Below are positions 18,732 through 29,260 of a stretch of DNA of 64,000 nt, in pieces. The notes beneath the pieces were generated by a model that was given only the letters and a program-made list of their open reading frames with translations, was not told the origin of the DNA and searched no databases. The stretch lies in assembly GCA_965248835.1 (NCBI GenBank), contig CBDFLJ010000001.1:1280001-1344000 (forward strand). The letters run 5' to 3'. The DNA is from Alphaproteobacteria bacterium. GTDB lineage: Bacteria > Pseudomonadota > Alphaproteobacteria > MPNO01. Position 1 is the stretch's first letter. Every line of letters starts with the position of its first letter. The position numbers and the translations under genes were made by a program.

Positions 18732-20810
18732 CTAAGTGTTCATCCGCAAGTCTTCTAGGAACTCCGACGCCGGCTCCACGCCGGTCACCAGAAGGTGGTC
18801 CCGGGCGCGTGTGCAGGCCACATAGAGAAGGTACCGCTCGGTCTCGTAGGTATCCGTAAGGTCGGCTTCGTCGGCAATGCTCTCGATCCTGGATTGCAAC
18901 GGCAGTATCTCGTCGTCGCACGCCGCGACTGCGACGGCGCGGAACTCCAGGCCCTTGGCGAGGTGCATCGTCCCGACCGCGACGCTGCCGGATACGGAGT
19001 CCGAGCGTTCGTCCAATGCGGCCATGGACATCCCGGCGGCGCGGACGGCCTTGCCGGCCCGCTCAATCTCGGCCTCGGACCGCACGAACACGCCGATCTC
19101 ATGCGGCAGGCAGCCGTCATCCCGCCGCGCGGCGAGCCACTCGGCGATCACCGCACACTCCTCATCCGGCGATTCGAGAATTCTGACGCTCGGCTCTGGT
19201 CCGTTGAACACCGAGACCGTGCCGCCGCGCCGCTCAGCGATGCCGTCGACGTCGGCGAGCTCGCTTGGCAGAAGTCGATCTGCCTGTCGTCGGATCTGAT
19301 GGGAGGTCCGGTAGTTGATGCGCAAAGTATGGGAGCGCCCGCGCACGTCCACGCCCAACGCCCGCCACGAGAACGGCGTCTGGAAGATTCGTTGGCCCAA
19401 ATCGCCGGCGAAGAACAGACAGCCGGACCGGTCGCTCCCAAGGGCCGCGAGAAAGCGGAGCTCCGGCACGCCGATGTCCTGCGCTTCGTCGATGACGCAG
19501 AAATCGAAAGGCGGATGCTGCGCCGCCGCGAAGTGCCGTTCCAGGCGGCGGAACAGGCCGGGCTCGGTGAGGAGGCCCTGGTCGTCGAGGGCGGCGCGCA
19601 GCTTGGAAAAGATCGACCAGAGCACGGCGCGCTGCGGTTCGGCCAGGCGCGTCTTTCGGCCGAGCCGCGCGACGTCGCGATAGTCTTCCCAGCTCTCAAG
19701 CTGCCAAGCGTCGACGACTTTGCTCCATTCCGTCCAGAGGAAGGGTGGGCTGAACCTATGCCATTCCACGTCCGCCGCCACCCGGGCGAGCAGCTCTCGG
19801 ACCTGATCGTCGGCCGCCAGATTAGGTCGGCCGAAATTCACTTCGTAGAGGCGGCGGCCGATCCCGCTCATCGAGTGCACTTCGAGGCGTTCGCCGATGT
19901 TTGGCTGGTTGCCGATCAGGCGTCTCAGCTTCACGCGCAACGCATTCGCGAGCGGATCGGAAAAGGTGGCGAGGAGAACCCGCGCGTCTGGATGCACCTG
20001 GGCGAGGTGGACGGCCCGATGAAGGGCGACGATCGTCTTTCCGGTGCCCGCCGATCCCGAGACCCGGGCCGCGCCGCCGAAGTCGCGCTCGACGATCCGG
20101 CGCTGCGCCGGGTGAAGGAAGACGGTCCACTTCTCCCACGGATAGTCGAGCGCGCGTTCCAGCTCTTCCGCATTCGCCATAACGCGGAATCGGCGTTGCG
20201 CGTCCGGATGGGCGAACGGGTCCGCGTCGGCGCCCGCTTGCAACGGCCGATCCGGAACGCCGCCTGTTGCAAGCTCCAGCAGCGCCTCGGCCGCCTCAGC
20301 CGGCAGGCGGTCGGTGATGTCGAAGAGGGTGTCTTCGGTGGCCTGCTTTACGTCATCGAGCCATTCCGAGGGCACTCCGTAGTCCAACAGCTCGTCATCG
20401 GTGACCTGTGGGAACAATAGGGGCTTTTGCGGTACAGGATCGGCGGCCTCCACGGGCCTTGGAATTCTGATCTCCTCAACCGTCTCCCGCACTTCGATGA
20501 GCTGGGCAGCGCCGGTTGTCGGATGCCGCTCGATCTTGCGCCGTTCGGTCCAGCGGTAGGCGTCGTCGTGATGGTCGACGTAGCACAGGAGGAGGCTTGA
20601 CGCGGTCCGATGAACGATCAGCCGGATGTCCCGGTTCACGCGAACCGACCAGAAATTCGGGTCTCTGGCGCGATCGACCTTATGGAACTGCAAGCCCGGA
20701 TTTGCGGGATCGAGCTGAAGGTCGAAGGCCGTGGTCTTGGCCGCCTTCTGTTCCTGTCCCGTCAGCTTGGTGAGGCTGTCGGTGAAGGTATCGGCAATGC
20801 GGAATTCCAT
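18732..20810 (-). CDS. UvrD/Rep-like SF1 helicase with an N-terminal RelE-like domain
   Basis: GSAGTGKT, DEAQD, NYRT, TMHLAKGLEF and LYVACTRAR motifs; N-terminus ...GLQFHKV...FWSVRVNRDIRLIV...HHDDAY; start set to ATG 20810. Confidence 0.85.
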   Translation of the reverse strand: MEFRIADTFTDSLTKLTGQEQKAAKTTAFDLQLDPANPGLQFHKVDRARDPNFWSVRVNRDIRLIVHRTASSLLLCYVDHHDDAYRWTERRKIERHPTTGAAQLIEVRETVEEIRIPRPVEAADPVPQKPLLFPQVTDDELLDYGVPSEWLDDVKQATEDTLFDITDRLPAEAAEALLELATGGVPDRPLQAGADADPFAHPDAQRRFRVMANAEELERALDYPWEKWTVFLHPAQRRIVERDFGGAARVSGSAGTGKTIVALHRAVHLAQVHPDARVLLATFSDPLANALRVKLRRLIGNQPNIGERLEVHSMSGIGRRLYEVNFGRPNLAADDQVRELLARVAADVEWHRFSPPFLWTEWSKVVDAWQLESWEDYRDVARLGRKTRLAEPQRAVLWSIFSKLRAALDDQGLLTEPGLFRRLERHFAAAQHPPFDFCVIDEAQDIGVPELRFLAALGSDRSGCLFFAGDLGQRIFQTPFSWRALGVDVRGRSHTLRINYRTSHQIRRQADRLLPSELADVDGIAERRGGTVSVFNGPEPSVRILESPDEECAVIAEWLAARRDDGCLPHEIGVFVRSEAEIERAGKAVRAAGMSMAALDERSDSVSGSVAVGTMHLAKGLEFRAVAVAACDDEILPLQSRIESIADEADLTDTYETERYLLYVACTRARDHLLVTGVEPASEFLEDLRMNT

Positions 20811-20826
20811 TTCGACGATGCCGGCT

Positions 20827-21420
20827 TCACCGTTTTCGCGTTCCGTCGGCCCGCGGTGGGTGACCTTGGCCGGACCGCCAGCCGTCCGGAATCCGAGGCG
20901 GCAGGTCGATGCGGGACAAGTCCAACTCGTAGTCGGCGTAGAACGCCGGCAGCCGGCCGTGCTCCACCGCGCCCAGCATGGCGACGAACCAGCCGGCATA
21001 GGCATAGTCCATGCCGATGCCCTCGTAAGCCAGCCGCGTGAAACGATCGATAAACATCTGCGCCAACTTTCGCGGGCTTTTGCGCGGCGCATCCGCCCAA
21101 TCGAAGAAACAGGCGCGCTCGGCGGAACTGTAGCGGACCGTCTCTCCAAAGCATTCCCGAACCGACCATCCATCGCGACCGATGTTGCTGGCAGGCGTGA
21201 CGATGCAGCGCCAATGAACGCCCGACGGAGACCAGCCGGGCGATATCCGAATTCCCTGATGGCCCAACTTGTGCAGCTCGTGGATCATGGTGAGAAACCG
21301 GCGAACATGTCCGAGTGTACGTCGAACGGTTGAACTGCTTTCCCAGTCGATTGCCGGTTCGAAACGCGCCAACGGTGCGGCATTTGGCCCGTCGCCGGCG
21401 GCCCCGCTTGCCCGACCCAT
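20827..21420 (-). CDS. Hypothetical protein (197 aa) between mod and the helicase
   Basis: Fills the gap in-operon; Trp/Tyr-rich protein-like composition (MIHELHKLGHQGIRISPGWSPSGVHWRC...YAYAGWF); start set to ATG 21420. Confidence 0.65.
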   Translation of the reverse strand: MGRASGAAGDGPNAAPLARFEPAIDWESSSTVRRTLGHVRRFLTMIHELHKLGHQGIRISPGWSPSGVHWRCIVTPASNIGRDGWSVRECFGETVRYSSAERACFFDWADAPRKSPRKLAQMFIDRFTRLAYEGIGMDYAYAGWFVAMLGAVEHGRLPAFYADYELDLSRIDLPPRIPDGWRSGQGHPPRADGTRKR

Positions 21421-21446: not shown

Positions 21447-24251
21447 TTAGACTCGGAACACCTTCATAACCTCGTCGCCGAGGTGGTTGATGACCTTGAC
21501 GGCGATGCGGCCGGATTGCGGGCGGTCGAAGGGGCGGGAGGTGTCGCTGTTGAGCGTCGCCCAGGCGTCCGCGTCGATCTCGGCCTTTAATGTGGTCTTG
21601 AGCGACTTGTAGGGATCGTTCGCGCCGAGGAAATAGGCGTGGCGGACGAAGAAGCTCTCTTCGTTGTAGTCGGTGTCGATGAACCAGCAGGCGATGCCGT
21701 CGGCGCCGTCGCTCCGCACCTCGCCGGTGTTGGGGTGGAAGACGTCGACACCGTTGATCTTCACCCGGATCTTTCCGTCGTCGGCATCCAGGATGTCGAT
21801 ATCGGGCTCGCCGAAGATGACGAACAGATTGCCCTTGCCGGTGTTCTTGAGATCGCCGGCCATGTGCAGATCGGCGTTCATGCGCGCCTTGAGGACCGGA
21901 ATGCGGCCGAGCTTCTCGAACTCGGCGGAGTGGGCGTCGTAGCTGAAGGCGCAGGCGATCAGCACGTCGAAGCCGGCATCGGCGGCCTCGCGCGCTGCGG
22001 CGACGAGGTCCGGGCGCGAGACCGTGCCGAACTCGGGGCCGACGAAGACCGCGGCGCGGCGCTCGATGCCGGTATCCCCATCGCCCTCCACGTATCGCCC
22101 ATCTGCGCAGACGTAGTCGCCGGGCCAAGGCGCAAGCGCGGAGAAGGCGATGCGGTCTTCCTTGTGCGCCTGCTGCACGCCGGCCAGGGCCAGGTGCTCC
22201 AGGACCATGGCGGCGAAGTCCTGCGACTCGCCGTATCCGAGCTTCTTGTCGGCGAGCTGACTGAAGATCTCGTCGTTCTCGTCGACAGCCAGCATCCGGT
22301 GGGGCGCCAGGCTCTCGACCGTGAACGGGCCGGCGACGCGGATGCGGGAATTGTCGCTATACGGCTTGTCGTAGAGATACTCGTAATCGGCCTTGGCGGC
22401 GATGGAGGCGTCGATCTCCTTCTGGCGGGCGATGCGCGCCGCCCACCAATCGCGATGAGCCTCTTTCGCCTCGCCCGCCCAATCTTCTGCCGCGTCGCGT
22501 GGAATCTGCCACTCCTCCCAGCTCTCTCCGAGCGCCGCATTGAGCCGCGCGCGGAGCGGTTCCAGCGTTTCCTGGTGCTTCTCCCAGATCACGTCGATCT
22601 CGGCGTTGTTGGCGATGGACTTCAACGTGACATGCGGCACCCTCTCGTAGACAAAGCCTTGCCTGATATCGCCGTGTGTCGGCGCCTCGGACGGCGCCCT
22701 GCGACTGATCCCAGCTTCCTTCCGCTGACCCTCCGGGCTGTCGGCCAGCAAATACCACGGATAGCGCGCGCCCATGACGCGGGCGCGGGCGAGCGCAAGG
22801 GCGACGCGGGACGTGTCGATGGTGATCCAGCGCCGGCCCCAGTGTTCGGCGGCATAGGCGGTTGTGCCAGATCCGCAGGTGGGGTCGAGGACGAGATCAC
22901 CAGGATCGGTGGTCATCAGCATGCAGCGCTCAACGATTTTCGAGTTAGTTTGAACTACGAAAATCTTGTCGTCTGTGAAGTTGCCAGTTCCAGTATCCGT
23001 CCAGATATTGCCATGAACGCCTGCGTCAAAGTCACTATGGTACCGAACATATCGGATCGAGTTTTCTGCACCGTGTATTCGGCCAGCTTTCAGTAGCCTG
23101 TCCATTCCGGTGGGATAATTGGCCTTCCAGTGAGAATTCTTATCCCAAGCATCGTAGGACCTCCCACGAAATAAGAACGGTTGTCGCACTTTGGCTCGTC
23201 CCTGTGAAATAATATTGTCTGGATTGTAAGGCGTGGCACCTTCCGGGATCGCCGCTTGCCCTCTTTTTTCGGCAGCAGTGACACCCCGGCAAGTGGAGTC
23301 CCCAAGCATTAGCCACCGGGCATTGCCATCACCGAGCCTGAATTCTTTACGATAAAGAGGAGATCGCGATTTTCCCCTGGTTTTGTCCTTCATATACCAA
23401 AGAACAAAGTCAGAAACATTGCCCAGGTATTCGGTCTGAAATCCTGTTGTTGTTTGGATTGAAATGAGGCTTGTGAAGTTGTCTTCACCAAACACTTCGT
23501 CCATCAGCGCCCGTACGCGGTGGACGTTCTCATCTCCGATCTGCACAAAAACTGAGCCGCTCTCCGTCAGCAAATCCCGCGCTACCGTGAGACGATCCCG
23601 CAGATACGTCAGATACGAGTGAATCCCATCCCGCCACGTGTCACGGAACGCCTTCACCTGCTCCGGTTCCCGCGTAATGTGCGCGGCGTTGCCGTCCTTC
23701 ACGTCCCGACTGGTCGTCGACCACTGGAAGTTCGAGTTGAACTTTATGCCGTAGGGCGGGTCGATATAGATGCACTGGACCTTGCCGCGCAGGCCCTCGC
23801 GCTCGGCCAGGCTCGCCATCACCTGCAAGCTGTCGCCCAGGATCATCCGGTTCGACCAGTTGGCGTCGTGTTGATAGAACTCGGTTTTGGCGTCCTCGCT
23901 AGGCAGGCCGTTGAAATCGTCGAACAAAGCCGGCGGCTCGGGCGCGTCCTGCTCCGCCCGCGCTTTCGACTCCTTCAGCAGGTCGTCGATCAGCACCTTG
24001 GGGTGAACTTTCTCCTGGATGTAGAGCGGCGGAGCCTGGACCACGAGGTCGGACCAGTCCCGCACGTCCTTGCCGCGCCAGACGAGCTGCGGGTCGAGAT
24101 CGCGGTTGCGGCGCTCATAAGCGACCTGAATCGGCGCTTTGTCTTCATCCGGCAGGACCGAGTGATACTCTGCCGTCGGGATGTTGCGCCGCGACGCTTC
24201 GTCGTGAACGAGTGTCTCGACGGATTTGGGTTTTCTGGGCGTTCGCGCCAT
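21447..24251 (-). CDS. mod: Type III RM adenine methyltransferase (Mod)
   Basis: IDPPYGIKFNSN catalytic motif, central variable region, then LDPTCGSGTT SAM-binding motif (beta order). Confidence 0.9.
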   Translation of the reverse strand: MARTPRKPKSVETLVHDEASRRNIPTAEYHSVLPDEDKAPIQVAYERRNRDLDPQLVWRGKDVRDWSDLVVQAPPLYIQEKVHPKVLIDDLLKESKARAEQDAPEPPALFDDFNGLPSEDAKTEFYQHDANWSNRMILGDSLQVMASLAEREGLRGKVQCIYIDPPYGIKFNSNFQWSTTSRDVKDGNAAHITREPEQVKAFRDTWRDGIHSYLTYLRDRLTVARDLLTESGSVFVQIGDENVHRVRALMDEVFGEDNFTSLISIQTTTGFQTEYLGNVSDFVLWYMKDKTRGKSRSPLYRKEFRLGDGNARWLMLGDSTCRGVTAAEKRGQAAIPEGATPYNPDNIISQGRAKVRQPFLFRGRSYDAWDKNSHWKANYPTGMDRLLKAGRIHGAENSIRYVRYHSDFDAGVHGNIWTDTGTGNFTDDKIFVVQTNSKIVERCMLMTTDPGDLVLDPTCGSGTTAYAAEHWGRRWITIDTSRVALALARARVMGARYPWYLLADSPEGQRKEAGISRRAPSEAPTHGDIRQGFVYERVPHVTLKSIANNAEIDVIWEKHQETLEPLRARLNAALGESWEEWQIPRDAAEDWAGEAKEAHRDWWAARIARQKEIDASIAAKADYEYLYDKPYSDNSRIRVAGPFTVESLAPHRMLAVDENDEIFSQLADKKLGYGESQDFAAMVLEHLALAGVQQAHKEDRIAFSALAPWPGDYVCADGRYVEGDGDTGIERRAAVFVGPEFGTVSRPDLVAAAREAADAGFDVLIACAFSYDAHSAEFEKLGRIPVLKARMNADLHMAGDLKNTGKGNLFVIFGEPDIDILDADDGKIRVKINGVDVFHPNTGEVRSDGADGIACWFIDTDYNEESFFVRHAYFLGANDPYKSLKTTLKAEIDADAWATLNSDTSRPFDRPQSGRIAVKVINHLGDEVMKVFRV

Positions 24252-24273
24252 GGATCAGCGCCTCGTTTCTGGC

Positions 24274-24479
24274 CTACAGTTCGGATTCATGGATGTCCGC
24301 CAGCTTCATGAGATACCTCTGCAAGCCGCGCTTGAGCAACGCGCTGCCGTGGACCGGTACCGAAATGCGAATATCCGACCCCACTTTCGCGTAGATACGG
24401 TGACTGCCCCGCGTGCGCATCAGTTCCAGCCTCGCGCTTCCAGCACGCGACAAAATCGTTTTCCGCTGACCGTTTTCAC
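24274..24479 (-). pseudogene. hicA: HicA toxin, frameshifted
   Basis: GTG start overlaps the hicB stop; reads MKTVSGKRFCRVLEARGWN*. The adjacent frame continues ELMRTRGSHRIYAK...ISVPVHG (HicA GSH motif), consistent with a 1-nt deletion. Confidence 0.75.
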
Positions 24480-24682
24480 ACGGCGATCTCGACCACCCTG
24501 CCGGCACCCGACGTGCCAACCTCGACGACATCCACCGAGAGGCACCCCTCGACCGCCTCATAGAGGTTTCTCAGCAGTTCCTCGAACGATTCTCCCTGCG
24601 TCGCGCATCCGGGGATAGCCGGCACTTCGGCCCAATACCCCCCTTCTTCCGCCTCGTGAACGACCACCTTCAATTTCATCAT
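24476..24682 (-). CDS. hicB: HicB-family antitoxin (short form)
   Basis: EEGGYWAEVPAIPGCATQGESFEE..N..EAV motif; GGAGGAG RBS. Confidence 0.85.
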   Translation of the reverse strand: MMKLKVVVHEAEEGGYWAEVPAIPGCATQGESFEELLRNLYEAVEGCLSVDVVEVGTSGAGRVVEIAV

Positions 24683-24714
24683 CTCCTCCTGGTTCGGGTG
24701 TGCAGCGCCACGGA

Positions 24715-24923
24715 TCAACCGGCCCTGGTCGAGCGCAGGGGCAGCGCTTCGGTCTCCAGCGTCGACAGATCGAGGCGCCGTGACGCATGGTCGATATCGA
24801 AGCCGACCACGTCGGCGTCGAGGTCGACGTTCGGCCCGTCCGAGACTTCCGCGTTTCCGCACCCGGCCCGGCCTTGAACTCGACATAGAGGCTGTCGGTG
24901 TCGGGATAGTAATGCAGTTTCAT
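24715..24923 (-). pseudogene. DUF2283-family antitoxin-like gene, frameshifted
   Basis: MKLHYYPDTDSLYVEFK in one frame, EVSDGPNVDLDADVVGFDIDHASRRLDLSTLETEALP in another. Confidence 0.7.
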
Positions 24924-25023
24924 GATCGCTTCTTGCGAAAATCTTGAACGGTGGCGAGACCAACCGCACTCTGCGAAAGTTTCATCGGTGTCGTGATGCC
25001 TTTCTTCGTCATCGACGTTCCTC

Positions 25024-25395
25024 TTACGCGCTCGCAGAATAAGCCACCCCCAAGTCGTCCGCGACCCGCCTCAATCGCCGATCCCGTGTCCAGAGCGTCG
25101 TGCCGTCTCGACTGAGCACTGAACAGATGAGATGTGCATCGACAAAACCTATCCCGCGCCCCATCAGCTTCCTTGAATCGATCATCGATAGAACCTTTGC
25201 ATGGTCCAATTCTCCGATGGCAGGCAGGGCGTTCAATCTTCGTAAGAGGTCCACCCGCTTGGGTAGATTTCCGCAGGCAAGCTCGCCGATGATCATCGCG
25301 TGCGTCAGCACGTCGCCGGCATGCAGGAGCTTGGGAAGTTCGGAGTCCGCGCTGCGCAAATGGTCGATCCACACCGAAGTGTCCACAAGGATCAT
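25024..25395 (-). CDS. vapC: PIN-domain VapC toxin
   Basis: MILVDTSVWIDHLR, IGELACG, GIGFVDAHL and LWTRDRRL, with four acidic PIN residues present; ATGA overlap with the res stop. Confidence 0.9.
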   Translation of the reverse strand: MILVDTSVWIDHLRSADSELPKLLHAGDVLTHAMIIGELACGNLPKRVDLLRRLNALPAIGELDHAKVLSMIDSRKLMGRGIGFVDAHLICSVLSRDGTTLWTRDRRLRRVADDLGVAYSASA

Positions 25396-28300
25396 TCCGT
25401 GATTTCACTCTGTCGGCGTGGGATATATTCGAGATTCGGGGCGCTGCCGCCGGCCTGGGCCAGCCACTCGGCTGCATCGAGTTCGGCCGTCGAGCGGAAG
25501 CGTTCGATAATACCGTCAAATTCAGCTTCTACCTTGGCCGCGAAGTCGTGTTCCATGGCGTAGACGTCTCGGAACTCGGCAAAAGCCCAGCGCCCGTACG
25601 CACCGAGCCGATTCACGCCGGGCACCCAGTAGGTGTCCATGGTTGCTTTCTTGTCTTTCGCGTCCTCGCCTCGATACCCCTTGATCTCGACGATCAGGTG
25701 CAGCGGGTCGTCGTCCCCGTGCCCATCGTCCACCAGCACGATGAAATCCGGGATGTAGGTGTGCGCCGAGGAACCGTGGCGGTAGGGCACCTCCAGGCCG
25801 AGACCCTGGTTCTTGACATAGGCATGAACCCGGGGGTGCGCTTCGGCGACGCGGCAGAACTCCGCTTCCCAGTCGCCGTCGCAGACCACCCAGTTGACGT
25901 GGCAGCGGCGTGGGTCGGTTTCCCAAAGTGTCTTCTTCGAGGTCGTGAAGCGGACATGGATCGTTGAGCCGGCCGGGTTGTAGGGGTCGAGAACGGCCTT
26001 GACCGGACGTTCGTCCACATGCGCCTCGACGATGCCGTTCGTGATGCGCTCGCAGGCCATGTCGGCGAGTTCCTGATATATGAGCTGCGCCGGGTAGGTC
26101 CCGCCCTTGCAGACGAGATGGTTGTCCAGCCATCGGCGCGTGATCCGCTTGAGCTGGCCGAAGAGGAAGAGCTTCGGCTCCTCGCCGGGATCTCGCCACT
26201 TCGTCTCTATCAGTCTTTTCGTGAGATGAAACAGGAGCGTCGAGACACGCAAGTCACCGAGGTGTTCGAGGCTCAAATTCACTCCCTCTCCGATGATTCC
26301 TTCGTTGCGGGTGATCGAAGGGCCGACGATCTCCGGGGTGAGCTCCAAGGTCGAATCGTCGTCGAACCTGGCCTGTAGGCGCTTCTCGGGCAACTCGATG
26401 CGGTAACCCGCGACACGCGGGAAGTGGATCTCGCATGCGTCGCGGTCCGGGCTCATTGCCTTGACCTGCACGATCGGGCGCGGCGGCTGCGGCGGTGCGA
26501 CGACCGGCTTGGCCGTGAAGTCGAACGGGATGCCGAGCACGTCGGCATATTCCACGTCCATGCGGCCTTCTTCGTTCAGGTCGTAGGATTGCCGCCGCAG
26601 CGCCCGGCCGACCACCTGCTCACAGAGAAGTTGCGTGCCGAAGGCGCGCACGCCAAGGACATGGGTGACGGTGTTAGCATCCCAGCCTTCCGTCAGCATC
26701 GAAACTGAGACGACGCAGCGGGTTGCACCGCCGAGCCTGCCCACCTTGCCGACGGTGTTCATCACCTCGCGCAGCAGATCCTGGTCGGACAGGTTCTCGG
26801 CCTGTTGGCGGTCGCCCGTGCGCTCGACGATCTCGCGGCGGAAGCGGTCGATCTCGTCCACGGCCATGCTGCGGAAGTTCCTGTCGAGAGCCTGCCCGGA
26901 TTCGAGCTGCTCGCTGTCGATGAGCAGAGTGTGCGGGCGGGCGAGCGGATTGCCGTGCTCGTCGAAGTTCCGGAACAGTTCGAGGCGGCCGCTCTCCAAG
27001 GTCGTGGAACCGTCGGGGTTCTCGCGGACGAAGCCGGAGATGTAGTCGTAGACCACCTTCGACGTCGACGTGTTGTTGCACACCACAATGAAGCAGGGCG
27101 GGACATCGATGTCCGCGTCTTTCCACAACTCGAACGTCTTCGCGTAATGCCCGTAGAGGGCTTCCATCGCCGTCTGGAGCGTGATCGGGATCTTGAGGGG
27201 GTCGAGGTTGGGTGCCTTGCCGCGACCCTTCTTCGGCATCTCCTTGCCGATGTGATCCCACAGGTTCCGAAATTTCGGCATGTCGCCGCCCGGGATATTG
27301 TCGGCTACCGGCACTCGGGGCAGCTTGACGATCCCGCATTCGATCGCGTCCATTAGCGAGAAATCGCACATGGTCCAGGGGAACAGCGTTCCTTCGGCGT
27401 AGCCCGAACCGCGCAGGAAGAACGGCGTCGCCGAGAGATCGATCACACGATTGAGGCCGAGCTTCCGGCCGACCGCCTCCAGCCCTGATATCCAGAGCCG
27501 GGCCGCTTCCCGGTTCTTCTCGGCTTCCTTGCGGTCGTCGCCTTTCAGGTCCCCTTCGTCGTCCTCCCCCGGTTTCTCGCGGTAGCAATGATGCGCCTCG
27601 TCGTTCAGCACCATGACGTTCTTCATGCCCATAAGCTCGGGCATGACGCGCTGGAGCATCTGCCCGGTGGTCTCCACCGAGCTCAGCTCGGGACCTCTTC
27701 CTTGGAGAAGGGCGCGGCCTCCCTTCGAGACGGACATCGTCTCCCTGGGCTTGAAGGCGTGGAAGTTGGTGATGACGATCTTCGCCCGGTCCAGATCGCC
27801 CAGCATGTCGTCGGGAACCAGTTCCCGACTCTTGTAGTAGCTGTCCGGATCGTTGGGTTGCAGCACGCGGAGCCGGTCGCGGATCGTGAGCCCCGGGGTC
27901 ACTACGAGGAAGCCGCGCGTAAATCTTCGGCTGTTGGGACGGCGGACCGCATTGATCGTCTGCCAGGCGATCAGCATCGCCATGACGGTGGTCTTGCCGG
28001 TGCCGGTGGCGAGCTTCAGCGCCAGCCGGGCGAGATCCGGGTTCGCCTGCGCGTTCGCCGCACCCAGATGTTCGAGAAACCGCTTTCCGGCAGCTCCCAG
28101 ATTGGGCGCGACCTCGGTCAGCCAGATCACGGTCTCCACGGCTTCGACCTGGCAGAAGAAGGGGCGGAAACTGTTGAATTCGTGATGGCGCCAGTGCCGG
28201 AGCAAACGGGCTGTCTCGGGCGTCACCCGCCACTGGGCGGGATCCGGCAGCGCCCGCCAATCATCGACCGCGTGGCGCACGCTGTTGATGATCTCCATCA

Positions 28301-28532
28301 AATCGTATTGCTGGCTCTCGGTGGCGAGCTTCTGTGCGGCCTCGTCGAAGACCAGCTCGCGCTGGTTCCGTTTACGCTTTTTCGGCTTCGGGATCGGCGT
28401 GATGAACGCGACGCGGCGACGCCGATCGAGGATCTGGTTCGTAGGCTGGCCGATTTCATCGAGTTCCCAATGGCGTGATGGATACTCGTAGGGTGAATTG
28501 AGGATCGGGCGGTCAAAGAAGCTTTCCGTCAT
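25392..28532 (-). CDS. res: Type III restriction endonuclease subunit (Res) with a VapB-like C-terminal tail
   Basis: Walker A ATGTGKT, NDEAHHCY, EGWD and QVVGRALR motifs; PD-(D/E)xK nuclease PDFIV...VEIKG; start set to ATG 28532. Confidence 0.9.
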   Translation of the reverse strand: MTESFFDRPILNSPYEYPSRHWELDEIGQPTNQILDRRRRVAFITPIPKPKKRKRNQRELVFDEAAQKLATESQQYDLMEIINSVRHAVDDWRALPDPAQWRVTPETARLLRHWRHHEFNSFRPFFCQVEAVETVIWLTEVAPNLGAAGKRFLEHLGAANAQANPDLARLALKLATGTGKTTVMAMLIAWQTINAVRRPNSRRFTRGFLVVTPGLTIRDRLRVLQPNDPDSYYKSRELVPDDMLGDLDRAKIVITNFHAFKPRETMSVSKGGRALLQGRGPELSSVETTGQMLQRVMPELMGMKNVMVLNDEAHHCYREKPGEDDEGDLKGDDRKEAEKNREAARLWISGLEAVGRKLGLNRVIDLSATPFFLRGSGYAEGTLFPWTMCDFSLMDAIECGIVKLPRVPVADNIPGGDMPKFRNLWDHIGKEMPKKGRGKAPNLDPLKIPITLQTAMEALYGHYAKTFELWKDADIDVPPCFIVVCNNTSTSKVVYDYISGFVRENPDGSTTLESGRLELFRNFDEHGNPLARPHTLLIDSEQLESGQALDRNFRSMAVDEIDRFRREIVERTGDRQQAENLSDQDLLREVMNTVGKVGRLGGATRCVVSVSMLTEGWDANTVTHVLGVRAFGTQLLCEQVVGRALRRQSYDLNEEGRMDVEYADVLGIPFDFTAKPVVAPPQPPRPIVQVKAMSPDRDACEIHFPRVAGYRIELPEKRLQARFDDDSTLELTPEIVGPSITRNEGIIGEGVNLSLEHLGDLRVSTLLFHLTKRLIETKWRDPGEEPKLFLFGQLKRITRRWLDNHLVCKGGTYPAQLIYQELADMACERITNGIVEAHVDERPVKAVLDPYNPAGSTIHVRFTTSKKTLWETDPRRCHVNWVVCDGDWEAEFCRVAEAHPRVHAYVKNQGLGLEVPYRHGSSAHTYIPDFIVLVDDGHGDDDPLHLIVEIKGYRGEDAKDKKATMDTYWVPGVNRLGAYGRWAFAEFRDVYAMEHDFAAKVEAEFDGIIERFRSTAELDAAEWLAQAGGSAPNLEYIPRRQSEITE

Positions 28533-28554
28533 TTCCGCAATCTCCAATCCTCCA

Positions 28555-28845
28555 TCACGCCGCTGGCGAAAGCCGCTCGATCTTGATCCGGTTCGCCTTC
28601 TTCATCGCCTGCGCCGGCTCGTAGGTCGATTGAAGACGGTATCAGGTCTCTGCGCCGCCGCCGAACGCCCTGTCGAGGCGGATCGCCATCTCGGGTGAGA
28701 TACCGGAACGGCAATTCACGATATCCGAAAGCTGCTTGCGGCTGATACCCAGCCTGCGTGCCGCCTCCGTCACGCTGAGCCCTAGCGGCTCCAGACAATC
28801 GTGACGAACGGACAGGCCCCGATGGAGTGGGTTCTTCATCGGCAT
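28555..28845 (-). pseudogene. higA: HigA antitoxin with a premature stop
   Basis: [20 protein letters not shown] and ISPEMAIRL; TGA at 28642-28644 at the usual Trp position, then YRLQSTYEPAQAMKKANRIKIERLSPAA*. Confidence 0.8.
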
Positions 28846-28857
28846 GTCCCAATCCCC

Positions 28858-28998
28858 CTAATGATAGTCAATCAGGCCCACATCCCTGACATCCCGTCTC
28901 TCGAAGCGGAGGATGATGCGCCAGTTGCCAGACACCCTGACCGCCCGATAACCCGCCGGATCGCCGTTCAACGGGTGTAATTCGAAACCGGGCAGGTC
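28858..28998 (-). pseudogene. higB: HigB toxin 3' fragment
   Basis: DLPGFELHPLNGDPAGYRAVRVSGNWRIILRF...IDYH*; N-terminal half missing. Confidence 0.8.
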
Positions 28999-29018
28999 AC
29001 AAACCGAAACGGTGATTG

Positions 29019-29260
29019 TCACCTAGCGACTTCGGCGATCCTGCTTGCGATCCGATTGGGGGCGGACTTGACGGGATCGTTGGCGAGATGGGCATAGCGG
29101 GCAGTGGTCTGGACCTGGGTGTGCCCGAGCGGCTTCCCGATCATTGCTAGGCCTTCGCCGACCGGCAGTCCGTCGTTGGCGAAGCTGTGGTGAAGATCAT
29201 AGATGCGCAGGTCCTCGAACCCCGCGCGCTCGAATGCGCCGCCAGGCGTATTGCAGATCG
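29019..29260 (-). pseudogene. Tyrosine integrase C-terminal remnant
   Basis: EDLRIYDLHHSFAN...IGKPLGHTQVQTTARYAHL, a degenerate HxLRH box with LGH and the catalytic Tyr. Confidence 0.85.

Follow-up and report, generated by a model that had tools for sequence, protein, structure and literature searches.

A VapB-like C-terminal tail on the restriction subunit Res as the probable tethered antitoxin of an adjacent VapC toxin

How is a VapC toxin held in check where no VapB antitoxin gene accompanies it? The question is raised by a restriction-modification (RM) locus of an alphaproteobacterium, contained in a stretch of 64,000 nucleotides (hereafter the window; contig CBDFLJ010000001.1, positions 1,280,001 to 1,344,000, with coordinates below counted from its first letter). 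Here an intact gene for a 123-amino-acid PIN-domain toxin, vapC (25024..25395, minus strand), sits between res and mod, and is thus embedded in the RM locus. We put forward that the answer lies in the neighbouring restriction subunit: Res ends in a short extension resembling the toxin-binding C-terminus of VapB, and a modelled complex suggests that Res is probably a tethered antitoxin. The toxin itself appears complete. Pfam assigns it to the PIN domain (PF01850, E=7e-10), and the acidic PIN residues, which a preliminary description of this DNA had reported as kept, are invariant (D5, E38, D86 and D105) across an alignment with 15 homologues (16 rows). With the NCBIfam VapC model NF047959 the toxin reaches no more than 28.6 bits, where 80 are required, and by sequence it is therefore better called PIN/VapC-like than an NF047959 equivalog. 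As a single sequence it has no sequence match in the PDB; as a profile it matches VapC11 (6a7v, E=7e-5) and VapC15 (4chg, E=3e-4) of Mycobacterium tuberculosis.

The res gene (25392..28547, minus strand) encodes a 1051-amino-acid restriction endonuclease of the BPTD_3080 family that combines a ResIII helicase region with a nuclease at its C-terminal end. The protein is full-length in the NCBIfam model NF046055 (1346.8 bits, cut-off 800), residues 11-1005 aligning to model positions 1-969 of 970; in Pfam the helicase region lies above its cut-off (PF04851, E=6e-8) and the nuclease domain PF19778 below it (17.7 bits against 23.4). The listed start is a TTG, and because homologues are 1045-1046 amino acids long the true start may be an ATG five codons further downstream. 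Past the model end at residue 1005 the chain continues as a C-terminal extension, residues 1006-1051 (25395..25532, minus strand), closing with ...AELDAAEWLAQAGGSAPNLEYIPRRQSEITE*; the downstream VapC opens with MILVDTSVWIDHLR. The two genes overlap, as had been described, in an ATGA junction (25392..25395): the plus strand reads TCAT, hence ATGA on the minus strand, with the Res TGA at 25392-25394 and the vapC ATG at 25393-25395.

Is this junction real? The possibility of an assembly artefact, voiced in the preliminary description, is ruled out by independent contigs that bridge it and by the same layout in two metagenomic loci presented below (L101 and L102). Two contigs probably derived from the source sample (X1 and X2) cover 25167-25707 and 25167-25641 with zero differences. 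Two more from two other studies (X5 and X7; 749 and 732 nucleotides, approximately 87% identical) span 24882-25631 and 24882-25614, and their sole indel, at 25001, falls outside vapC and other genes.

The origin of the extension was approached from the toxin side, by collecting open reading frames (ORFs) that end at the vapC start of VapC homologues. Among 401 genomes from the same phylum, 19 contain such homologues (E<=1e-10), the window's own included, and of 19 homologues in other genomes 17 have a VapB of 62-69 amino acids directly upstream. These free VapBs take the form MRTT.NLDD...L.ALVERESARRLA.LGGS.P.LE..PRR and end ...ESARRLA.LGGS.P.L...PRR, so that the C-terminal motif given in the preliminary description proves to be real in VapBs of this kind. 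All five that were tested belong to PF09957 (VapB_antitoxin), whose Pfam model covers residues 1-46 only, and these antitoxins give no NCBIfam match. A hidden Markov model (HMM) of 66 positions was built from 15 free VapBs, whose extraction also required the motif G-G-[STK]-x-P...R. Searched against the 76,062 six-frame ORFs (>=30 amino acids) of the genome, it found Res as the sole match above the inclusion threshold (E=0.0016; the next at E=0.66). Thus, the genome holds no free vapB of this family within this search, in keeping with the earlier statement that a separate vapB is missing. HMM positions 37-63 of 66 align to Res residues 1022-1048 (ELDAAEWLAQAGGSAPNLEYIPRRQSE; 25404..25484, minus strand), and the N-terminal DNA-binding PF09957 domain is absent from Res, which agrees with the proposal that only the C-terminal part of VapB was grafted.

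Further comparisons point the same way. At E<=0.01 the VapB HMM matches 38 of the best 120 Res homologues, and in every case the match lies at the very C-terminal end and covers HMM positions ~29-65. Aligned with the C-termini of free VapBs, the Res tails need no gaps, and L, G, P, R and R are invariant. Searched against 1.84 billion proteins, a 34-position profile of the tail retrieves 1280 at E<=0.001. Lengths among the best 150 range from 31 to 173 amino acids, with the motif mostly at or near the C-terminal end, and since these proteins are all small this search is uninformative on other large tailed proteins. In eight of ten sampled proteins from this search a PF09957 domain lies immediately ahead of the motif. 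A word search with the 50-amino-acid tail gave no candidate sharing three 5-residue words, which reflects a limit of the method and is not evidence. Sequence comparison therefore indicates that Res 1022-1048 is homologous to the C-terminus of PF09957 VapB antitoxins. It could be objected that the tail is not a working antitoxin at all, being either a non-binding relic or the trace of a free peptide made from an internal start, for which an in-frame Met in ...YAMEHDF..., some 50 codons ahead of the res stop, is a candidate. The last 60 residues of Res do have no Pfam or NCBIfam match, and the whole-genome E-value is modest; the former, however, is explained by PF09957 covering VapB 1-46 only and ending where the tail homology begins, and the Met is also present in untailed homologues and so is not specific to the tail. 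We regard this alternative as very improbable, all the more given the complex model, the co-occurrence of tail and toxin and the purifying selection described below, which all favour the tail itself.

How widespread is the tail? Res residues 780-1051 were searched against 5.8 billion proteins, and the best 120 are 69-95% identical over that region. They fall mainly into an untailed group of ~1013-1025 amino acids, ending soon past ...GRWAFAEF...F..MI.., and a tailed group of ~1034-1055 amino acids that continues AA.WLA.AGGS.P.LEYIPRRRSE. Counting was restricted to the 111 proteins of at least 950 amino acids, the nine shorter ones being excluded from both count and tree. Labels set by regular expression (39 tailed, 3 degenerate, 2 of a third type) were corrected by eye in four cases (P0001 and P0037 to tailed, P0025 and P0072 to degenerate), which yields 41 tailed, 5 degenerate, 2 of the third type and 63 untailed. 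About two thirds of the close homologues therefore lack the extension and end ~30 residues earlier, and the alignment that the preliminary description had proposed supports its expectation: judged by these sequences, the tail is an addition to the family core that is common in the closest relatives. The tailed proportion is inflated because the sample was ranked by similarity to a query that contains the tail; species-representative genomes contain at least 581 Res loci, and of the best 80 of these L023 alone has this tail. On a FastTree phylogeny of tail-trimmed Res proteins, midpoint-rooted and read without a monophyly test, tailed proteins occur across much of the tree, alternating with untailed clades, and the third tail type nests within a tailed clade. 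This branching pattern fits either an old acquisition followed by repeated loss, or an exchange of the 3' end together with downstream cargo. Among plasmids, 31 records contain the Res C-terminus; 30 of the matches extend no further than query residue 119 of 150 and so do not reach the tail homology, and that of plasmid H13 (36.7% identity) reaches residue 128, short of the PRR end of the motif. Viral contigs gave one match to the tail pattern, and none was confirmed. A one-off accident, which the preliminary description had held in reserve, is ruled out by recurrence, with 41 of 111 proteins tailed and 38 of 120 matched by the HMM.

In solved VapBC complexes the C-terminus of VapB covers the active site of VapC. 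We predicted the corresponding complex from VapC (16-row alignment) and Res 1000-1051 (cut from a 27-row Res alignment). The predicted pair scores an ipSAE of 0.84 (0.84, 0.86 and 0.81 in individual runs), and the three controls, the best among them included, score 0.00. In calibration, the mark applied was reached by 58 of 80 solved complexes and by 2 of 110 mismatched pairs; it holds roughly here, and only roughly, because our own alignments were used. The partner in the predicted complex has a pLDDT of at least 67, and the runs have at least 89% of their contacts in common. The predicted interface joins Res 1016-1045 to VapC residues 6-7, 10, 12-16, 20-27, 38-46, 49-58, 81-86 and 105, and so includes positions at or beside all four acidic active-site residues. 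The model thus supports binding of VapC by the tail, as had been anticipated. The score was possibly helped by solved relatives, since the VapC profile matches 6a7v and 4chg, and part of it may reflect likeness to solved VapBC complexes. Unlike VapC, the free VapB of this type has no solved relative by sequence: a free PF09957 VapB query matches no PDB sequence, the VapBs of VapBC11 and VapBC15 included.

Do tail and toxin travel together? JGI metagenomes were scanned for the peptide LEYIPRR[QR][SG], a search biased to tails containing LEYIPRR. Of 28 matches 11 were confirmed, namely two tailed Res (L101 and L102, nearly identical to each other) and nine free VapBs. In both tailed loci a 123-amino-acid VapC begins 3 nucleotides before the Res stop, is ~62% identical to that of the window and shares the ending ...GVAYSASA, and Mod begins 517 nucleotides past the Res stop; other tailed Res followed by vapC, which the preliminary description had suggested looking for, thus exist. 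The nine free VapBs (63-81 amino acids) represent five distinct sequences (L103-L107 comprise two variants, and L110 equals L111), and each has a VapC-type ORF beginning 3 nucleotides before its stop, one of them cut by the contig end. The ATGA-type overlap is accordingly seen at most free vapB-vapC pairs as well as at L101 and L102. Between the window and L101, the proportions of synonymous and non-synonymous differences (pS and pN) are 0.83 and 0.21 over the 42 codons of the tail, 0.58 and 0.23 over vapC, and 0.69 and 0.16 over the 200 Res codons upstream of the tail. Synonymous sites are saturated and non-synonymous change is low, and these sequence comparisons therefore indicate that tail and vapC have long been kept under purifying selection.

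In this context, we propose the following history and mode of action. Ancestrally, a vapB-vapC pair would have stood directly behind res, in the space between res and mod. An in-frame deletion would then have taken out both the stop codon of res and the part of vapB that encodes the DNA-binding PF09957 domain, fusing the toxin-binding C-terminal peptide of VapB to Res; such a deletion within a landed vapBC pair would account for the native ATGA junction having been kept. In the predicted complex the tail helix (1022-1031) packs on VapC and the GGSAP...PRR stretch crosses the acidic active site, where it would block the RNase. That the tail inhibits VapC by running over the active site is, on this model, very likely. 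A scan with a σ70-type consensus, which may not fit this organism, revealed no promoter-like site within 24200-29200 and no terminator-like site between res and vapC, and the Shine-Dalgarno sequence of vapC is weak by eye. Because of the missing promoter-like site and the weak Shine-Dalgarno, vapC is probably coupled to res translation, and at most one VapC per Res would be made. Res would then be the only antidote to VapC, and the antidote would be lost with any removal or truncation of Res, be it by a frameshift or nonsense mutation in the 3.1-kb gene, by deletion or by loss of the island. VapC outliving the tail would arrest the cell.

What would such an arrangement achieve? Its main effect may plausibly be addiction, the cell coming to depend on the RM operon and on keeping res intact, a reading that we hold tentatively and favour somewhat over a phage-triggered guard. 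The RM system alone cannot enforce an intact res, since loss of the restriction activity is otherwise harmless. Several observations weigh against this interpretation. Addiction presupposes that VapC lasts longer than the tail, and an antitoxin carried on a large, stable Res may itself be stable. With translational coupling, a premature stop in res would also lower the synthesis of new VapC, and the policing would be less effective. That the tail is under purifying selection is expected from the toxicity of VapC alone and is no sign of a higher-level role. The whole-genome match of the tail is modest (E=0.0016, a 19-bit domain). The neighbouring genes are known for just four loci that have an intact tail of this type (the window, L101, L102 and L023), the other ~38 tailed homologues being protein records without readable neighbours. 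Finally, a tail can persist without its toxin, as in L023 (7055-7936), whose Res carries an intact, very VapB-like tail (...ESARRLALLGGSEPQIEPIPRR...) with no vapC behind it. No VapC of the window's family was found in that genome at E<=1e-5, and a different antitoxin-PIN pair lies 141 nucleotides downstream of Res. The preliminary description had recognised that tails in Res homologues devoid of vapC would speak against it. Among the four intact tails with readable context this holds for L023 alone, which we read as a relic of toxin loss, and L101 and L102 do carry vapC.

The orphan tail of L023 is one of several signs of decay, and these bear on a more sober explanation. The fusion might be an accidental deletion product that performs ordinary toxin-antitoxin (TA) neutralisation with no added function for RM, persisting because tail loss is lethal while vapC is intact and decaying once vapC is gone. 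Degenerate tails without vapC would be expected of such a history: L001 has one, with no vapC behind Res nor elsewhere in the genome, and P0019, P0028 and P0057 show them by sequence alone. In P0040 the tail runs, within the final 15 residues of this Res, straight into ...LGVAYSPGD, the last residues of VapC, which looks like an in-frame deletion of the toxin gene, and the PIN gene of another tailed locus (L066, below) is split. The scatter of tails among untailed clades likewise fits repeated loss or cassette exchange. Nevertheless, the fusion persists at saturated synonymous divergence and is present in roughly one in three of the closest Res homologues, and it arose again with a second type of tail and toxin and probably a third. 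Moreover, accident or not, a res that cannot be lost is itself the addiction effect. We therefore consider a purely neutral history unlikely.

The second type is found in L063 (7013-7572) and L066 (6992-7579). Their Res proteins bear a different extension, ...YEKLDFKELLAAAPLEGIDLARQRDFPRDVEF (also written ...KELLAAAPLEGIDLARQRDFPRDVEF and ...LLAAAPLEGIDLARQRDFPRDVEF), and a different PIN protein (PF01850, E=6e-15) begins 3 nucleotides before the Res stop; in L066 this PIN gene is split across two frames. Of 301 genomes, 64 contain a homologue of the L063 PIN, and 30 loci were fetched. The antitoxins upstream of these homologues have various N-terminal domains. That of L113 ends ...SRPDLKALLASAPLEGIDLTRPRDFGRDVDL (also written ...LKALLASAPLEGIDLTRPRDFGRDVDL), nearly identical to the L063 Res tail, and several others show a looser motif, ...LL..[MS]P... 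followed by acidic residues and a late arginine; among the 30 loci, some antitoxins, such as those of L117 and L121, have no ending of the ...LL..[MS]P... type. A further ending, ...GKLRVGHKLTRDEMNER, is carried by the Res proteins P0101 and P0106. It resembles the antitoxin C-terminus of the pair downstream of Res in L023 (...GKVRIGRKPTREEMNAR; L023:7303-7524; local score 66), an antitoxin that matches DUF6364 below the cut-off, and from these sequences is probably a third tail type. Given the different tail and the different PIN in L063 and L066, sequence comparison argues that a toxin-binding tail has been grafted onto Res more than once.

This recurrence, together with the setting of the genes, brings in a scenario of guarding. 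Of 82 related loci (L001-L080, L101 and L102), 71 have Mod downstream of Res in the same orientation; the other 11 have no Mod match and mostly a short flank. The gap between Res and Mod ranges from 0 to 2839 nucleotides, being at most 154 in 24 loci and at least 320 in 47, and many of the cargo genes it holds start 3 nucleotides before the Res stop. A census of the 47 long gaps comprised 82 plus-strand ORFs of at least 60 amino acids. By Pfam they include PIN (6 ORFs), Bro-N (6), DUF1016 or YhcG (4), DUF2283 (4), ORF6N (3), Fic (3), HepT (2) with nucleotidyltransferase (MNT; 2), NYN (2), Schlafen/AlbA_2 (2), and one each of HicA, 'Unstab_antitox', an AbiEii-like ATPase and GmrSD. The space between res and mod is a slot for toxin and defence cargo; in the window it spans 24252-25391. 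VapC could be held latent on Res and freed once the restriction enzyme comes under phage attack, be it by an anti-restriction protein, by proteolysis, or by a shut-off of host synthesis with turnover of the tail, whereupon the RNase would abort the infection. A toxin gene embedded in an RM operon with a tail predicted to bind its product, the fusion of different antitoxin tails to Res at least twice independently, and a slot whose cargo is typical of defence and abortive-infection accessory genes are all in line with this view. So is the presence of free TA pairs in the slot of L023, L006 and L011: since such a pair would already stabilise the locus, there is a suggestion of some advantage in tying the toxin to Res itself. 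PrrC and PARIS are, moreover, called 'RM guardian systems' in the available part of PMC12707154. On the other hand, displacement or degradation of the tail on infection is an assumption and the trigger is likewise hypothetical, and repeated fusion is explicable by opportunity, small in-frame deletions being an easy route because many cargo genes start 3 nucleotides before the res stop. Guarding thus needs one assumption more than addiction, and we consider both the phage-triggered release and its proposed triggers possible but rather doubtful. A broader version would see the Res C-terminus as a docking site for exchangeable cassettes of tail and toxin, of at least two and probably three kinds, forming a modular phage-triggered guard of type III-like restriction. 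A phage that disables, degrades or starves Res would then free the leashed RNase and provoke abortive infection. We likewise view this broader version as questionable, and retain addiction through a tethered antitoxin as the preferred reading.

The remaining genes of the locus are also on the minus strand. The mod gene (21447..24251) encodes a 934-amino-acid type III-like DNA methyltransferase (PF01555, E=6e-30; PADLOC MTase_III PDLC03632, 1371 bits, full length), and the third gene of the operon (18732..21173) an 813-amino-acid UvrD-like helicase, NERD+UvrD or GajB-like in PADLOC. A homologue of the latter follows Mod in 12 loci whose flank is long enough (L010, L019, L024, L026, L028, L044, L049, L059, L061, L063, L068 and L069); with the helicase after Mod in the window and in these related loci, the RM system may be a three-gene Res-Mod-helicase unit. 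Between vapC and mod, remnants of small genes (24274..24969) were recognised with Pfam and by eye: a DUF2283 gene split across two frames (24558..24923 and 24715..24969), compared by eye with the intact DUF2283 of L002 and L015; a short HicB-like ORF inside 24476..24886; and a HicA-like ORF (24274..24561) that matches only profile positions 14-58 of 58, its N-terminal part being gone. The upstream flank holds an intact HigA-like helix-turn-helix ORF (28642..28845), a truncated HigB-like ORF (28858..29022) that matches only positions 49-91 of 91, and a 41-amino-acid ORF (29019..29144) that by eye resembles the end of a tyrosine recombinase and has no Pfam match. The earlier remark that every other TA toxin here is broken thus holds for the two flanking modules examined, HicA-like and HigB-like.

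Two further observations concern the family and the source of the DNA. Res proteins 70-81% identical to that of the window are found across many phyla, including Pseudomonadota, Chloroflexota, Acidobacteriota, Planctomycetota, Nitrospirota, Verrucomicrobiota, Actinomycetota and others (L001-L080), a distribution that points to extensive horizontal transfer of this RM family. The source assembly consists of 2 contigs and is 100% complete with 9.51% contamination; it may therefore be a metagenome-assembled genome with some foreign sequence.

If Res does act as proposed, a defence enzyme would have taken on the role of antidote by acquiring nothing but the toxin-binding peptide of an antitoxin, giving a physical and testable connection between restriction-modification and toxin-antitoxin systems. 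Genes for Res could in this way be shielded from the truncating mutations that otherwise disarm RM without cost, and an RM 'guardian' could arise by mere deletion. The ~30-residue tail would also be a minimal VapC-inhibiting peptide. Since the Pfam VapB model stops ahead of the motif, domain libraries miss such tails, and where 'orphan' VapC toxins are met, large proteins encoded next to them are worth checking for short antitoxin tails.

How, then, does the arrangement compare with known systems? With type II VapBC modules whose antitoxin belongs to PF09957 (formerly DUF2191) it shares the four acidic residues of the PIN toxin, the antitoxin C-terminal motif ...RLA.LGGS.P.L...PRR and the ATGA overlap, and the closest solved VapC relatives by profile, though distant, are those of VapBC11 and VapBC15 of M. 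tuberculosis (6a7v and 4chg). In contrast to such modules, there is no separate antitoxin gene and no DNA-binding, autoregulatory N-terminal domain, and the peptide homologous to the toxin-binding part forms the C-terminus of a 1051-amino-acid restriction endonuclease; the system thus fails one defining feature of type II TA systems, a separate antitoxin with a DNA-binding domain. PrrC with the type IC system EcoprrI, as presented in the available part of PMC12707154, offers an analogy, in that an RNA-cleaving toxin lies in an RM operon and the enzyme is proposed to hold it latent. PrrC, however, does not belong to the PIN proteins, and it is the assembled type I enzyme that restrains it, in place of a grafted antitoxin peptide; its activation by the T4 Stp peptide is established whereas the trigger here is hypothetical, and the RM system of the window is type III-like, with Res, Mod and a helicase. 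No homology of the 123-amino-acid toxin to PrrC or RloC was detected, Pfam finding PIN only and PADLOC nothing. Fused or cis-acting TA proteins such as CapRel and EzeT, as far as the sources at hand describe them, also have the antitoxin function as a domain of a larger polypeptide, but there toxin and antitoxin form one chain, whereas here the toxin is separate and the peptide sits on an unrelated enzyme. The addiction described for RM systems (Mruk and Kobayashi, PMC3874152; Kobayashi), in the portions available, has in common that gene loss is punished by a surviving toxic activity; in the classical case it is loss of the methyltransferase that is punished, while in the present case the penalty for losing or truncating Res would come from a second toxin. 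The literature searched, including the accessible parts of PMC12707154, PMC10865869 and PMC2701414, contains no description of an antitoxin tail on a restriction subunit, and the family name BPTD_3080 is absent from the full-text literature searched. The components (a PIN/VapC toxin, the C-terminus of a PF09957 VapB and a BPTD_3080 Res) all belong to known families; what sets the arrangement apart is their wiring.

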